NCBI GenBank assembly: GCA_001929475.1
Contig: LXFE01002348.1
Location: forward strand, 1-39,249
From: Neolecta irregularis DAH-3
Lineage: Eukaryota
Length of the DNA stretch: 39,249 bases
Reading direction: 5' to 3'
Shown: positions 4,914 to 15,085 of the stretch, one piece after another
How the letters are laid out: every line of letters begins with the position of its first letter
How positions within the stretch are numbered: position 1 is the first letter of the stretch
The notes under the pieces: model-generated
What the model was told of the DNA's origin: nothing
The model's database searches: none
Seen by the model: the letters and a program-made list of their open reading frames with translations, nothing else
Program-made: the position numbers and the translations under genes

Positions 4914-6917
4914 TTACATTTGCTCTGATTGTTTGTACTCGATAAAAGCTTGTAAATTTTGAGAAATTTCATTGGCTTTGGATCGTTGTGCGCGATTGTG
5001 CTTTGGTATGCAGTTTACCTATTTGATATTAGCGCAGTCCTTTCAGTGTGGCCCCACCATTGTATAAAGTTTGGGCAAGGTCTCTTGTAAATGCCTCAAG
5101 AACCCGCATTGGACAAAAACAGGTGTATCGTAATCAAATGCCGAGTCGGCATAAATATCAAACAAGGCATCCAAAGATTCAATGACGGCGTCGACCGGAC
5201 TTCTCGGGAGTCCTTGGATGACCGTCATGAGGAATATGCCAATTTCCTACTAATCAGATATTGAAACCGATAAGGAGTATACTTGATTGATCTCAATTTG
5301 GCCCTGTCTGCAAGCTAGCTTTCCCAACGTGCCGATACATTTCGTTTGAAGATTTTCAGATGATGTCTCGCGGAAGATTTTAATGATTTTTTCGAGGTCA
5401 GGTTTGGAAATGTCAATATCGAATGATGTCCTTGTGATAATCCATGCTAATCCCAAGACAAGCTCAAGTTCAGCTTCCCCTGTGCAGTCACCCGTTATAT
5501 AATTGAGGCAAATGTTCCAGATGTCCAACGCTATATCCTTCCAACCGAATCGTGATTCTTGTTTCTCTGGAATACGAGATTCGATAGTCCATCCAATGTT
5601 GTTTAAAAATTCTAATGTTCTTATCGCCATATCTGCTTTTCCTTGGTCAATCTTTTCTTCCAGTTCTTTTTGTAGGTCTTGCAGAAGACGCACAGATATG
5701 GGAACGGCAACTGAAATTATCTCCATGAGAAAGCTTTGCGAAACAACTGAAAAAGTTTCCACTCCCATTTCTTCATCCGAAGCATTGGAACATGCATCAT
5801 CTTCATCGCATACCAAAGTCTCTAAAATATCAAAAGAGGTTGATATCAAGTCAAAAGACTCCAAACCAACAAGGCGAGGAAAGTCCTGCCGAGATCGCTT
5901 GTCATCTTGGTCTTTCAGGATAGCAAGGACCTTTTGAAAAGGTTTCGAATGATCTTCCAGAGAGGTGAGATTACACAACACGCCTTTGATTAACTGCAGT
6001 CGAACGATGAAAATACCACATAAATTGATTCGGGCTAATGCTGGACAATCCTTTGCATCGATAGAACATGCAAGTACGTTCAAAAGGGACTCGTCATTCG
6101 AAATATCAGCACGTATTTGTGAATTCAAGTCTGATAATGCATATAATGATTTAGCTATAATTCAGAGATGTAAACAACTCAAAGTTGGTACCAGCGACTA
6201 TTTGAGAGGTTATTGGTGAGCGGTATTTATTATCAACGAGTCCAGATATCAGAGCCAATACTGATGCATTCGACTGAACAATGACCTGCATTGCTTTATC
6301 CGCGAATTCGCTGTTGAAGAAGTGAGATTATTATAAGCGAGTTGTTACGGACCTTAAAGCCCATACAAGACACAGTAAATTTTCACTCAAGGGCCATAGG
6401 ACTTTCAGCATTATTGCATCAACGCCCGGGCTTTCTGATTGTGCACGAACAGTCGTGCTGCACTTCCATTAGTCTAATATTTCGACGCTGCATGCTTTGT
6501 TGATAAGGGACATCGCGGGAGTCAAGATATCATTCTCGTAAAGTTCCACACAGACGTCTGGGGTAGTTGCAAAGTTTCGCAAAGAACCGCTTGCCTCAAG
6601 AATAACTTGTTGAGACGAATCCGTTAATCTCTGAATCAAGGTTTTGAGGACGCCATTTGCTATTAGTAAACGCTTTAATTCTGTGTCTTCAGCGGCAATG
6701 TTGGAAACAGCCACAGCAGACCACGCACGGTCATTCTCGTTAGGACTGTCCAACTGAGATGAAGTAAGCTCACTCACAAGTGATCACAAACTTTTGAAAT
6801 TATCGGCAAGATACCAGCTTGAGATATTTGAGAGTCAAGCTTGCCATCCACATCGAGTCTCTTTGTCGGAGCTGGTCTGTTCTGCCTATTATTTCTGCGA
6901 GACGCCGTTTTACCCAT
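4914..6917 (-). CDS. syo1: ARM/HEAT-repeat protein, Syo1/HEATR3 family (symportin for Rpl5/Rpl11); about 7 introns
   Basis: Basic N-terminus MGKTASRRNNR, then ILPIISK|LDSPNENDRAWSAVAVSNI, LIQRLTDS, EASGSLRN, LVWALSE; C-terminal LDALFDIYAD and NLQAFIEYKQSE. Introns include 6754-6791, 6463-6495 (GC-AG) and 5019-5057. Confidence 0.8.
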
Positions 6918-6982
6918 TCTCAATGAATATTTCTTGAAATGATTTGTTTAATTGTGTTGTGCACGTGCGCTTTCCTACCGTC
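6918..6982. promoter_or_regulatory. 65-bp bidirectional promoter region between syo1 and MLH1, containing a GCACGTGC E-box palindrome (6961-6968)
   Basis: Divergent ATGs at 6917 (-) and 6983 (+). The palindrome is read directly; its function is inferred. Confidence 0.5.
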
Positions 6983-9399
6983 ATGATGGATGCTCCACCA
7001 GAGACAGATGCCAATCTTCCACGTCCAATTAAAGCTTTAGACGCTACGGTGGTCAATAGGATAGCGGCAGGAGAGGTAGGCGGCCGCAAATTATCACCGT
7101 TGATTGACCTTGTACGATCATCCAACGTCCCGCAAATGCATTGAAGGAGCTTATTGAAAACTCCATAGACGCTCGGTCCACAAGCATAGATATACTAGTC
7201 AAGGATGGAGGACTCAAGCTGCTGCAAATCACTGACAATGGTCATGGCGTTCGGGTACGAGGCCCCATAGTGTGTTGCTTACAAGTTTCAGAAAGACGAC
7301 ATGGCTATTCTGTGTGAAAGATTCACCACTTCCAAATTGCAAACCTTTGAAGATCTCTCCTCAATTGCTACATACGGATTCCGGGGTGAAGCTCTTGCTA
7401 GTATTAGCCATGTTGCACATATGACCGTCACTACCCGGACTGCAAGTTCTGACTGTGCTTGGAGGTTAGCATTACAAAGAGTTTGCTAATGCTTAGAGCT
7501 TGCTATTCAGATGGAAAACTCGTAGCAGCAAAGAATGGAATCTCTGCAGAGCCAAAACCCACGGCCGGACGACAAGGAACCCAGATCACCGCGGAGGATT
7601 TATTTTACAATGTCCCTACTCGTCGTAAGGCATTCAAAAATACAAACGAGGAGTATTCTCGGATAGTAGATGTTGTCAGTAGGTATGCTGTACATTGCGA
7701 GGGCGTAAGCTTTACTTGCAAAAAGGCATATTTCTACCGTTGATGATACTTATTCCACAGCATGGCGATAATAATTACAGCGTTTCGACAATGGCAAAAG
7801 CATCGAGCCTTGACAACATTCGTCAGATATATGGTCATGCTGTCGCATCGGAGACTGTTGCATTCAGTTGCTCAAATACAAAGTTTGGGTTTCAGGCAAA
7901 GGGTTTGATTACAAACGCAAATTACCATGCGAAGAGAATGATTATGTTATTATTCATCAATCGTAAGAAGCTCGTTCTGGAACTCAAATTAAGGGAAAGA
8001 CCGTTTAGTCGAATCGTCAAGCTTAAAGAAAAACATCGAAGCGACCTATTCAACTTTCCTTCCCAAGGGCAGCCATCCTTTTATTAATATATCAATTGAA
8101 ATTGAACCGCACCGGGTCGATGTAAATGTTCACCCAACGAAACGTGAAGTTCATTTTCTAAATCAAGAAGAAATCATTGATGATATATGTGCTGCTCTGC
8201 AAAGAAAGCTTGCATCCACAGATACTTCCCGCTCCTTTAAAACTCAAGTATATGACCACTACCTTTGCAACCTAACTTTCAAAGACTTTATTACCTGGCG
8301 TTAAACCTGTCGAACTTCCAGCTACAGTAGAAGATCTGAGCAAAGGTAACACATCAAGAAGCAGCACAATTCTCATGCATCTAGTTCGAAAGCCATATGA
8401 AAAACATATGGTTAGGACAGATAGCCGTGACAAAACTCTGGATTCTCACTTTACACCTCTCAAAGAAGTAAAGTCGAATATTTCACAAGTTTCCTCTCCC
8501 ATCTGTAAAACCACAGATCGAAGGCGAGTTCATATACGTCTTTCCAGCATCAAAGAACTTCGCTCACAAGTTCGGGATACTATGCACAGCGCTTTAACTG
8601 AGGTTTTCGCAAGTCATACTTTTGTTGGAATTGTGGATGAGACACGAAGACTAGCGGCAATTCAACATGGAACGAAGCTTTATCTCGTTGATTACGGTGC
8701 AATCAGTTTTGATTTATTCTACCAAATTGGGCTGACTGACTTTGGAAACTTTGGAGTCATTCTCTTAAATCCACCTTTGGAGATTTCTGCTCTCTTGGAG
8801 CTTGCAGCTTCTTCCCAAGATGGGGAAGATGCAGTCATGTCTGATATTAATTCGCCCGAGCAAACACAAATAAACGCAAGATGAAGTCCGACTGTTCATA
8901 CTGATTGGTCAGCCAGTCACGGAGATTCTCGTGTCCCGCAAGGAGATGCTGAACGAATATTTCTCTATTGAAATTTCCGAAGACGGATTTTTGTTGACAA
9001 TACCGCTGCTATTAAAGAACTACTCGCCTGGACTAGGAAAATTACCTCGTTTCTTACATAACCTCGGAAGCAAAGTATCGCCATTTCTTATCTCTGCATA
9101 ACTGTAGGTGAATTGGTTTGACGAGAAGGAATGCTTTAAAGACCTCATAGGAGAACTCTCTCTGTTCTATTCACCAGAACCTTTGCCCCAGCCCGTGCCT
9201 GAAGCTATGGAAGGACGAGCCACTGATCTTCGACATTCGATCGAACATGCTCTGTTTCCTGCTTTCAAGAAGCGACTGGTTGCGACAAAGCGATCACAAC
9301 AAGAAAGAAGAGTTGTTGAAGTTGCAGATCTTCCAGATCTTTACAAGTTAGTTTTTTGTCAGTTTTTCGTTAACGCGCAGAGTATTTGAACGATGTTAG
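6983..9399 (+). CDS. MLH1: DNA mismatch repair protein MutL homologue MLH1; 10 introns
   Basis: [62 protein letters not shown], terminal LYKVFERC*. Introns 7076-7116 (GT-CG), 7255-7291, 7465-7496, 7726-7760 (GC), 7963-7999, 8248-8284, 8346-8384, 8876-8912 (GC), 9075-9107, 9347-9380. Confidence 0.97.
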
Positions 9400-9663
9400 A
9401 TAATGTAGTATAGAGTTCGACAGGATGGGGTTTGCATTTTTCTACTCATAGGGAAACTCTTAGCTGTGTTAAACTGAGTATGGAAGCGGGAATAGCTAAT
9501 TATGACAATTGATAGTGATTCAAAGTAACAAGTTACGCCCCATACAAAACTAGTCAATTTTTATTTTTAATGTGAAAAGGTAGAACACATCCTGAGATAT
9601 ACTAAAGATCAGATTTCCACTATCAGATTATGACCACCCGTGTGGCCAGGGCGATTCTAGGTG

Positions 9664-10981
9664 ATGTCAACCTCCAACCAACTTCACTCAAAAAGTAACA
9701 TCCTCCACACAACAGAATCTGGCACGACGCTTATCGACGTGCCTCTGAAGCGAGATGTGCTTCACAGTCTCAAATATAATGTGCCGATCTCATCTCCACC
9801 AAAATACCCATATGTCCTAGCAGAGCCCAAGAAATTGGGGTCAACCTTGGCACAAACGGAGGAATTGCACAAACTTCACACCAGATGGAAAGACGTACTC
9901 GAAAATGCATTGCTGGACATGAAGAATGCTATTGGTGAGAGTGGACGGTGGTGTTGTGAGAGACCGGAAACAGGAGAAGAAAGTTTGGAGCTCATAGACT
10001 TTAATTTCGGAGATTGGGCTTGGAATTTGGAAAGTATGAGATCAATGGGATGTTTTCAGAATACATCTGTGCTCGAATTATCAAGTATTCAGTCCTTTTT
10101 GATCATGTTAATCTTTTCTATTCCAGGTGATTTCACAGAAAATGTCTTTGATATCGATTCAATATATAGCAGAGTTGTAGCCAACAACTCCTCAACTGGA
10201 ACGACCTTATCGATTTCTATACCGGGGAGAAATCAACAGTATTCGCGATACTATATACCAGCGCATTCAGCTTTTCTCCTCGCGCGGTTCCAGCCTACTA
10301 TCGGCCATATGAATATTTATGCATCATCTGTCAATGGCTTTGATTTACTTATCCTCGACCCGCCATGGCCGAATAAATCTGCAAGTCGTGGTAGCAAGTA
10401 TCGCACAATCGATGTTTTTGATCTATATCAACTGAGAATCGGCCACTGGTTGCGAGAAGGAGGACTTGTGGCAGTATGGTGCACCACAAAGACAAAATTC
10501 AATAATTTTACAAAAGAGAAGTTATTTCCGGCATGGGGGGTGGATTTGATTGCGGAATGGGTGTGGCTAAAGGCAAGTTACGTATTGGCAAATCGCTGAT
10601 ATCAAGGTGACTGACAAGGGAGAGCCAGTATTTAATTTAGACTCGTTAAATCGGAAACCATACGAACCAATAATAATCGGTCGAAAGCGACTTGATCTTC
10701 CGAGAAGAAATCGAAAACGGAATAAGGCAGAATCGAAAGATATTGATCACGTGTCTTTTCTGCCCGACAGAAAAGTGTTGATCGGAGTTCCAGAGAAGCA
10801 TAGCGTAAAGCCTAACCTTATTGGTAAAGGTGCGCATAATAATAAATACTAATATTCAGAGCTTTTGGGTGACTTTATCTCTCCAAATGCAGTAATTGGC
10901 GAAGTGTTTGCGCGTAATTTAACAAGTGGGTGCTTTTCATGGGGTGACCAAGTTCTCCAGCATCAGTCTGTGCGTGAATGA
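9664..10981 (+). CDS. MT-A70 family N6-adenine methyltransferase, METTL4-like; 3 introns
   Basis: FDLLILDPPWPNKS catalytic motif, EWVWLK|VTDKGEPVF, RKPYE, HSVKP, EVFARNL, SWGDQVL. Introns 10085-10126, 10573-10606 (GC-AG), 10824-10859. Confidence 0.85.
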
Positions 10982-12972: not shown

Positions 12973-15085
12973 TTACTCATGAGTCGGCATATTCACAGTA
13001 GCTTTAGTACAACTAGCATCATCATGTCTCCAGAGCGCAGTAACGGTTTTCAACTGCGTGTAAAACTGCAACCCTCCCTTTCCGTAGAAATTCAAGTCGC
13101 CGAGAACACTCCCTTTATTGCCGGTGAACGAAAACATTGGCAAGGGAACGGGAATGGGGACATTGATTCCGATTTGACCTACCTCGACGTCTTTCTGGAA
13201 TCGACGTGCTGTTGCACCGTTGGTTGTAAATATGGCAGTCCCGTTGCCATCTTATTGTCAGTGTCTAGAGTTCATTGATGTTTTGTACATTTGTTTTCGT
13301 TGATAAGATCAATGGCGTCGTCGAGAGTCGGCGCATTGAGGCAAACAAGAACCGGTCCGAAAATTTCTTCTTCGTAGCATTTCATTCCCTTTTTGACATC
13401 GGTAAGAATCTGTTTCATCAATCAAGTTCTATAGACTTAAAAACCGTACCGTAGGTGCAACCCAGTTTCCAGCCGGGTATTTTTCAGGTACGTAGCCACG
13501 GCCGTCAAGTGATAGCGTTGCTCCTTCGTCAATCCCAGACTGGATCAAACTTTCAATTCGAGCCTTTGATTGTTTCGAAATAACTGGACCACTGCAATGT
13601 TATAAAGCAAGCCCTTTCCAGACATACAGATCGGCCCCCTCTTCAAATCCACCTGTAACTTTAAGCTCCTTTGCCCTTGCTACAATATCCTTAATCCACT
13701 CTTTAGTTTCACCAACGAATACAACTTGTTTTTTCAGCATCAAGAGTAATGAATAACTTACGAGTGGATAAAGCCATACATCGCTGCCCTGCAGCACCAA
13801 AAGCAGCCCCTATAATTGAGTTGATGGTATGCTGTTTATTCGCATCCGGCATAACGACGGCATGGTTCTTGGCTCCAAGATTCGCCTGTACTCGCTTTCC
13901 ATTAGCGGTACCGCGTTCATAAATATATTTTCCAGCACGATCACTCCCTACAAAGGATATGGCTTTGATATCAGGGCAATCAAGTATATAATCGACTGTT
14001 GGAGCCGTTCCATGGACAATGTTAAGAACGCCATTTGGGAGACCTGCCTCGCGAGCTAGTTCAGAAATTATCATTGCCGCCCCTGGGTCTCGTTCGGAGG
14101 GTTTCATAATCAAGCAGTTGCCGGTGACAGCTGCTACTGGAAGACACCACAGCGGAATCCTAACGATCAGCATGAATATACAACGGCGAGTGTACATGGC
14201 GGGAAAGTTGAAGGGACAGATGGCTGCTACGATACCCTATAGTATTAATACGATGGCGAGATTGAGTCGTTGTACAAGAGGCTCTCTTTGCAATCAGTAG
14301 AGGTGGGATAGCGGAAACTTACCGAATAGTGTAAGTGTCCATATCCTGGCTAACTTCGATCTGTTCGCCCATCATAGTCATAGGTATAGCACAAGCACTT
14401 TCAACAACCTGCAACCCTCTCAAGACATCTCCTCGGGCATCGGCCAAAGTCTTTCCCTGTTCAAGGGTAATGCAGGCAGCCAATCGGTCCCAGTTCTCTC
14501 GAATGAGCGAGACGAGCCGGAACATGATTTGTTGACGGTGCATGATTGAAGTTTTGCGCCATGCGGGGAAGGCTTTCTTTGCAGAGGCGACTGCCGCGTC
14601 GAGTTCCTCTGTGGTGGTCTCGGGGACCCGGGTGACGAGGGTTTGAGTTGCCTAGGCTTGTTAGCAAAGAGGAGCAGAACCGAGTAAGCAAGATGCAATG
14701 GAAGCTATGACAGAGGTACCCAGCCCGCAAGAGGCTAGGAATTATTATGATTGTCCTCAAGATAGAGGCTTTTCCTGACCGTCCTCAAGACCAAGGCCTA
14801 CTCGCCATCAAAGAAACCCAATTAAACACACCGGATCATGAAGATCAATCCACTTGTTTGTCCTGCTCTGACGGTCAAAAATACATCTGGGAGCAAACAC
14901 ACCTCGACCAAGGTGTTGTCTAGAAAGTTCATGGTTGTGCTAGGCTGCTTGACATCAAAGTGGGACTTTGGGTAGGGCGCATTTGCAGCGGCCATGGCGG
15001 AGCGGACGGGGCCGGAAGTAACAAGACCTCGCATGTAGATGAGCGGAGGTCGTGCAATGGAGCGGAGGAGAATACGCGAAGACAT
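12973..15085 (-). CDS. Mitochondrial methylmalonate-semialdehyde dehydrogenase (ALDH6A1/MmsA); 9 introns, including one of 180 nt, and a 10-nt micro-exon
   Basis: Arg-rich presequence [73 protein letters not shown]; ends NMPTHE*. Confidence 0.95.
14652..14831 (-). other. Atypically long (180 nt) structured intron in ALDH6; candidate cis-regulatory RNA or intronic ncRNA
   Basis: Junction HDP|ATQ; GTGTGT donor, GCTAAC branch, TAG acceptor. Closing stem CGAGUAGGC/GCUUACUCG (14796-14804 with 14681-14689), internal hairpin 14719-14739, 10-nt direct repeat TCTTGAGGAC twice. Confidence 0.6.

Follow-up and report, generated by a model that had tools for sequence, protein, structure and literature searches.

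The MLH1 locus of Neolecta irregularis

The DNA analysed here (the window; 39,249 nucleotides) comes from Neolecta irregularis DAH-3 and contains a complete MLH1 gene, NEOLI_001282, on the + strand, with its ATG at 6983 and its stop codon at 9397-9399. Its exons matched the Pfam families HATPase_c_3, DNA_mis_repair and Mlh1_C, corresponding to the GHKL ATPase N-terminal, MutL transducer and Mlh1 C-terminal domains. When the largest MLH1 exon was used as the query in a protein search, the top match was the window's own NEOLI_001282 (542 aa, 100% identical), followed by fungal Mlh1 proteins with at most 56% identity; no close relative of Neolecta was found in this search, the next match being 56% identical. 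A literature search brought up no publication about Neolecta splice sites or its MLH1 gene. Introns and splicing are absent from the main text of the Neolecta genome paper, and the searched terms are absent from one of its supplementary files.

Two sequencing runs covered the stretch, X1 (DNA) and X2 (recorded as 'DNA?'), and both were viewed as assembled contigs. Contigs drop rare variants; they show the presence of isoforms, not their absence. Between 6500 and 10000, the X2 contigs skipped 11 short segments with GT/GC...AG ends. Because its contigs skip introns, run X2 behaves as derived from transcripts, despite its label. One X2 contig of 2109 nt spanned MLH1 from 7116 to ~9545, with nine introns removed. 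The gene is organized as follows:

6983..9399, + strand: MLH1 coding region, 11 exons and 10 introns; NEOLI_001282
6983..7075, + strand: exon 1, 31 codons, ending in ...VVNRIAAGE (last codons GCA GGA GAG)
7076..7116, + strand: intron 1, 41 nt, GT...CG, phase 0; 19 of 80 metagenome MLH1 loci have an intron at the homologous site
7117..7254, + strand: exon 2, 46 codons, first helix and motif I of the GHKL ATPase fold; HATPase_c_3
7255-7291, + strand: intron, GT-AG, 37 nt, removed in the X2 contig
7465-7496, + strand: intron, GT-AG, 32 nt, removed in the X2 contig
7726-7760, + strand: intron 4, GC-AG, 35 nt, removed in the X2 contig; missed by the public model
7963-7999, + strand: intron, GT-AG, 37 nt, removed in the X2 contig
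8248-8284, + strand: intron, GT-AG, 37 nt, removed in the X2 contig
8346-8384, + strand: intron, GT-AG, 39 nt, removed in the X2 contig
8876-8912, + strand: intron 8, GC-AG, 37 nt, removed in the X2 contig; missed by the public model
9075-9107, + strand: intron, GT-AG, 33 nt, removed in the X2 contig
9347-9380, + strand: intron, GT-AG, 34 nt, removed in the X2 contig

Apart from intron 1, MLH1 is intact and expressed. Once the RNA-supported introns were taken out, the C-terminal ...FERC of the MLH1/MutL family was present (...LYKVFERC), and with intron 1 (7076-7116) removed as well, the product had 684 residues and aligned without gaps at its N-terminus. The public model of NEOLI_001282 has 542 residues against these 684 RNA-supported ones and lacks the ...FERC end. 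It places a GT-AG intron at 7705-7760 instead of the GC-AG intron 7726-7760, losing seven residues (VSFTCKK); it then runs into the GC-AG intron 8876-8912 and stops there at residue 542, which costs ~140 C-terminal residues. The deposited model appears to come from a gene caller that accepts GT-AG introns only.

GC-AG introns make up 2 of the 10 MLH1 introns (7726-7760 and 8876-8912), well above the 1-2% customary in fungi; elsewhere in the window, none of the 12 homology-anchored introns described below needed a GC donor. The intron table for Ganoderma lingzhi gives a GC-AG share of 1.85% (PMC11590231).

The neighbouring genes lie close by. MLH1 (ATG at 6983) and a SYO1-like gene on the - strand, whose transcript contig reaches 6820, diverge from an interval of ~160 nt. 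At the other end, the MLH1 transcript contig, which reaches ~9545, overlaps by ~17 nt with that of the + strand gene following it, an MT-A70 family member whose contig starts at ~9529; MLH1 and the MT-A70 family gene are thus packed very tightly.

Intron 1 and the motif that fixes its junction

Intron 1 consists of the letters GTAGGCGGCC...TTGACCTTGTACG, with the pattern GTAGGC...TTGTACG. The initial annotation had described it as an apparent MLH1 intron without an AG acceptor, and every element it described was found in place. The features in and around it are:

7076..7081, + strand: intron 1 donor GTAGGC; the hexamer recurs at the start of the homology-anchored intron 23349
7104..7108, + strand: branch-like TTGAC; distance from its A (7107) to the end of the intron 9 nt; top motif score
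7114..7116, + strand: intron 1 end ACG, replacing the usual CAG, TAG or AAG
7112..7146, + strand: GT-AG intron of the public model, 35 nt; rejected as the main form
7145..7146, + strand: first AG downstream of the branch site, inside the stretch kept by the transcript contig

Between 7076 and 7150, AG dinucleotides begin at 7078, 7145 and 7148 only. The sole AG inside intron 1 is thus the one at 7078-7079, which agrees with the earlier placement at +3/+4, and there is none between 7080 and 7144. The reading frame of exon 2, counted from 7117, differs from that of exon 1 and is closed upstream by a TGA at 7105-7107. A frame-keeping acceptor must therefore end within 7107-7116, where there is no AG at all. 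Without splicing, the MLH1 frame stops at the TGA at 7142-7144, after 53 codons, and the next in-frame ATG is at 7301, located in exon 3; both had been pointed out in the initial annotation and were confirmed.

Taking out 7076-7116 is the only in-frame way to join exon 1 (...IAAGE) to the conserved start of exon 2. Among the 120 homologues listed, with Neolecta's own protein excluded, 54 contained AAGE in the first 120 residues, and in 54 of these 54 it was followed by exactly 10 residues (mostly IIVAPVHALK) and then by E[LM]xEN. Neolecta MLH1 fits this arrangement only with 7076-7116 removed. Exon 2 aligned from its first residue to the N-terminal domain of human MLH1 (4p7a residues 25-70, E 1.2e-16) and also end to end with E. 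coli MutL. Because all 54 homologues share the spacing and exon 2 aligns to both 4p7a and MutL, the restored MutL-type motif is, judged from these alignments, not a chance match. If the conserved motif is kept, a non-AG end is forced. The claim that the motif returns only when these 41 nt are removed held on AG positions, on frame and on comparison of gene models: no other junction kept the motif.

One in-frame alternative with GT-AG ends had been overlooked in the initial annotation. This is the intron of the public model (7112-7146, 35 nt), which does not keep the motif. If it were correct, Neolecta MLH1 would have a divergent N-terminal helix. The intron has canonical ends and a normal length, preserves the frame and belongs to the deposited annotation; however, it swaps the conserved 10 residues, a segment of fixed spacing in 54 of 54 homologues, for 12 unrelated ones, offers no reason for 30 nt of perfectly conserved coding sequence and has no good branch motif, only a weak CAAAT. 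The transcript contig retains 7116-7146, and both GC-AG introns are mis-modelled in the same annotation. We consider it very improbable that the public model is right at this point.

Another possibility is that the CG is skipped and the first downstream AG (7145-7146) is used, giving a 71-nt intron and an in-frame MLH1 shortened by 10 residues; this could be the main form or an alternative one. The spliceosome usually picks the first AG after the branch site, and such an intron would follow that rule, with GT-AG ends, the frame preserved and the ELIEN motif kept. Against it, the transcript contig retains 7116-7146, the length is far beyond the local 32-40 nt, 39 nt separate the branch A from this AG (6-11 nt locally), the 71-nt option has no more than a weak CAAAT motif, and the helix that would be deleted is conserved. 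Scored against three homologues, both the annotated model and the 71-nt model fell ~40-55 points below the model with 7076-7116 removed. Use of the downstream AG appears quite improbable. The deposited NEOLI_001282 contains three errors, a misplaced intron 1 and two missed GC-AG introns, and its protein shrinks from 684 to 542 residues. GT-AG-only annotation of the intron-rich Neolecta genome can silently harm conserved motifs.

The X2 contig ran unbroken through 7116-7253, indicating that an RNA form keeping 7116-7146 exists. It stopped exactly at 7116, with no loose end (one run, one study). Position 7116 is the last letter common to spliced (...GAGAG/ATC) and unspliced (...GTACG/ATC) RNA, and an assembly graph would be expected to branch there; the end of the contig at 7116 is therefore a weak hint of a junction at this point. 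No contig in X1 or X2 joined 7075 to 7117, the X2 cover of MLH1 starting at 7116. X2 left 6821-7115, the part with exon 1 and intron 1, uncovered, and we did not count this gap as evidence.

Several further candidates were rejected. A junction shifted by +3 (GEV/IQRP, ends GG..TC) has no GT, and the contig end would then be expected at 7120; a shift of -1 has the ends GG..AC and gives the same mRNA. No AG is available to pair with GC donors at 7064 and 7067. A ribosomal frameshift within 7108-7116 would insert ~14 residues, and no slippery site was present. A U12-type intron was rejected on a donor mismatch: the consensus donor of U12-type (minor) introns is RTATCCTT, and the intron 1 donor GTAGGCGG does not fit the U12-type extended donor.

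We also considered whether the true base at 7115 is A, in which case intron 1 would be an ordinary GT-AG intron. A single base change would indeed make it canonical. Against this, the X1 contig was identical to the window over 6500-10000, including every letter of this stretch, at a mean word depth of 439. Since this independent contig assembly gave the same letters at that depth, an assembly error at the acceptor is unlikely, with the qualification that X1 is possibly the window's own source data, so that its agreement tests the assembler rather than the sample. Overall, a sequence error is hardly credible.

Intron 1 among introns of the window and of other MLH1 loci

For comparison, we used a reference set of 23 window introns, of which 11 (9 GT-AG, 2 GC-AG) were taken from X2 contigs in 6500-10000 and 12 were homology-anchored, that is, placed from the continuity of Pfam profile coordinates between adjacent open frames. 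The latter lie in SYO1-like, FAA-hydrolase, aldehyde-dehydrogenase, Rio2 and MOR2/PAG1 genes. Dicer, RNase III, CPR, RRM, MT-A70 and the last MOR2 pair were excluded, as their profile coordinates were not contiguous, and the reference scan covered ORFs up to 27606.

All 23 reference introns ended in AG (9 CAG, 9 TAG and 5 AAG), which for the 12 homology-anchored ones, searched for GT/GC...AG solutions only, means that a fitting canonical solution exists and does not imply its use. Intron 1 was the sole non-AG case among the 24 introns examined in the window. Because 23 of 23 other window introns end in AG, CG acceptors are an exception in the window, not a general habit of this spliceosome. 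In other respects intron 1 was close to its neighbours. The reference introns measured 32-40 nt (n = 23), and its 41 nt lie one base past this range. For the best YTNAY-like motif, 21 of 23 reference introns had a distance of 6-11 nt to the 3' end; in intron 1 the distance was 9 nt, which bears out the earlier claim that TTGAC (7104-7108) puts its A 9 nt before the end, at the usual local spacing. Of the features of a U2-type intron, intron 1 has a GT donor, a YTNAY-like branch motif at the local distance and an orthologous position; it lacks the AG 3' end, its last three bases being ACG. It keeps a G at the last position (7116), as BG-type 3' splice sites do, and its last 20 nt (the CGTTGATTGACCTTGTACG region) contain no run of four or more T and no U-rich tract. 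Intron 1 thus looks like a normal local intron in all but its last two bases.

A separate observation concerns the aldehyde dehydrogenase gene of the reference set (14237-14322, - strand), which has an apparent 10-nt micro-exon at 14276-14285, AGAGCCTCTT. It would be flanked by GT-AG introns of 37 and 39 nt, a structure predicted from homology; this arrangement alone restores the aldehyde dehydrogenase peptide.

We scanned metagenome contigs with the exon-2 peptide and obtained 80 MLH1 loci. AAGE and II... were contiguous in 61 of the 80, with no intron at the site. In the other 19, which form 14 groups at 90% nucleotide identity, exon 2 began at the same codon as in Neolecta (L004, L005, L008, L013, L014, L016, L018, L022, L027, L038, L043, L052, L056, L058-L061, L071 and L074). 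An AG preceded exon 2 in all 19 (15 CAG, 3 TAG and 1 AAG). The upstream IAAGE exon ran straight into a GT in 17 of them, with introns of 49-162 nt (~146 nt in L004, with a corrected boundary); for the remaining two, no such exon turned up in the 700 nt upstream, or in as much of them as the contig contained. Because 19 of 80 loci share the site and all of these are AG-ended, the position of MLH1 intron 1 appears, on this comparison, to be old and widespread, with Neolecta having retained the intron and its ACG end being derived.

The loci nearest to Neolecta in exon 2 (L001, L002 and L003; 85-91% identity) had AAGE/IIQRP contiguous. An in-frame stop just upstream of VVDKIAAGE in these three loci suggests an intron at a different, nearby position.

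Interpretation and comparison with known systems

The explanation we favour, with a probability of about 0.65, is that intron 1 is an ancient intron with an altered acceptor, ACG where AAG probably stood before, and that its splicing continues, perhaps at low efficiency. It would be an old spliceosomal MLH1 intron, at a position common to many other fungi, whose 3' end is now ACG and not NAG. The simplest origin would be a single A-to-C change in an AAG acceptor, the end of 5 of the 23 local introns. The major spliceosome would still join GAG/ATC, with ligation at the CG; positioning of the 3' end in the catalytic centre may come from the GT donor together with TTGAC, whose branch A lies 9 nt upstream, while the terminal G is retained and only the A at position -2 lost. 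Splicing of intron 1 would probably be less efficient than that of the other nine, so that spliced and intron-retaining RNAs coexist. The contig end at 7116 would be compatible with a weak site and some retention. Counting against this explanation, AG is found in 23 of 23 other introns, and the window gives no sign of a general tolerance of the spliceosome; the U-rich tract that favoured non-AG sites in yeast is missing, and replacing AG by CG ordinarily disables the second splicing step.

Alternatively, the C at 7115 may be a recent mutation, in this individual or its lineage, that blocks correct splicing of intron 1, leaving little or no functional MLH1 and making this a mismatch-repair-deficient mutator strain. 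A recent mutation in this individual would leave a DNA picture identical to that expected under the favoured explanation; the acceptor is one step from AAG, with which 5 of 23 local introns end, and no junction-spanning RNA was present among the X2 contigs, whose cover of MLH1 begins at 7116. Nevertheless, the gene is otherwise intact and is transcribed with nine introns removed, its contig ends exactly at 7116 as a junction would give (a weak point), and yeast with relaxed fidelity can splice at an ACG (PMC10711555). We regard such a splice defect as unlikely. The initial annotation had offered an acceptor positioned by distance as one possibility, and had gone on to name a tunable mutation rate through throttled MLH1 output and a mutator strain as consequences of intron 1; these last two are speculation.

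A broader reading is that in this fungus, with introns of no more than 32-41 nt, a fixed branch distance of 6-11 nt largely determines the 3' splice site and a terminal G suffices, so that the CG could be the sole productive acceptor of an essential repair gene and its lower efficiency would make MLH1 dosage depend on splicing. We hold this to be distinctly unlikely. If it were true, the mutation or recombination rate would depend on splicing fidelity through MLH1 dosage. If the CG is used, as the favoured explanation of a changed but still working acceptor has it, intron 1 would be a natural case of a non-AG acceptor as the only productive site, placed before the ATP-binding motif, and a convenient system for studying the choice of 3' ends in ultra-short introns.

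Known systems resemble intron 1 in different respects. Compared with the 19 metagenome MLH1 introns at the homologous position, it occupies the same phase-0 site, between IAAGE and [IV][IL]xRP; those introns are 49-162 nt long and all end in AG, whereas the Neolecta intron has 41 nt and ends in CG. GC-AG introns are the common non-canonical class and deviate at the donor, whereas intron 1 deviates at the acceptor; the removal of those in MLH1 was seen directly in the transcript contig, and they too are absent from the public annotation.

The closest match in mechanism comes from Saccharomyces cerevisiae. When Prp18 is missing, this yeast splices at BG-type 3' sites; one of them, an ACG in PHO85, was verified by RT-PCR, and U-rich tracts favoured non-AG 3' sites (PMC10711555). 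The yeast sites share with intron 1 a retained terminal G, a replaced A at -2 and a position near the branch point. They are, however, low-level alternatives, activated without Prp18 and favoured by U-rich tracts. In Neolecta, by contrast, a conserved gene would depend on the CG as its only productive site; the fungus is presumably wild-type, and there is no U tract.

For the dinucleotide pair itself, the precedent is Ganoderma lingzhi, whose curated annotation contains 19 GT-CG introns (0.0206%; PMC11590231). Ganoderma belongs to another phylum and has much longer introns, and the accessible part of the report links none of the 19 to a conserved catalytic motif; the pair of ends is nevertheless the same, in a fungus, with transcript support there. 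The use of ACG in yeast and the GT-CG introns of Ganoderma therefore indicate that the chemistry is possible and that the class is known though rare. Intron 1 of Neolecta MLH1, with its putative CG acceptor, belongs to this known, rare class of non-AG acceptors.
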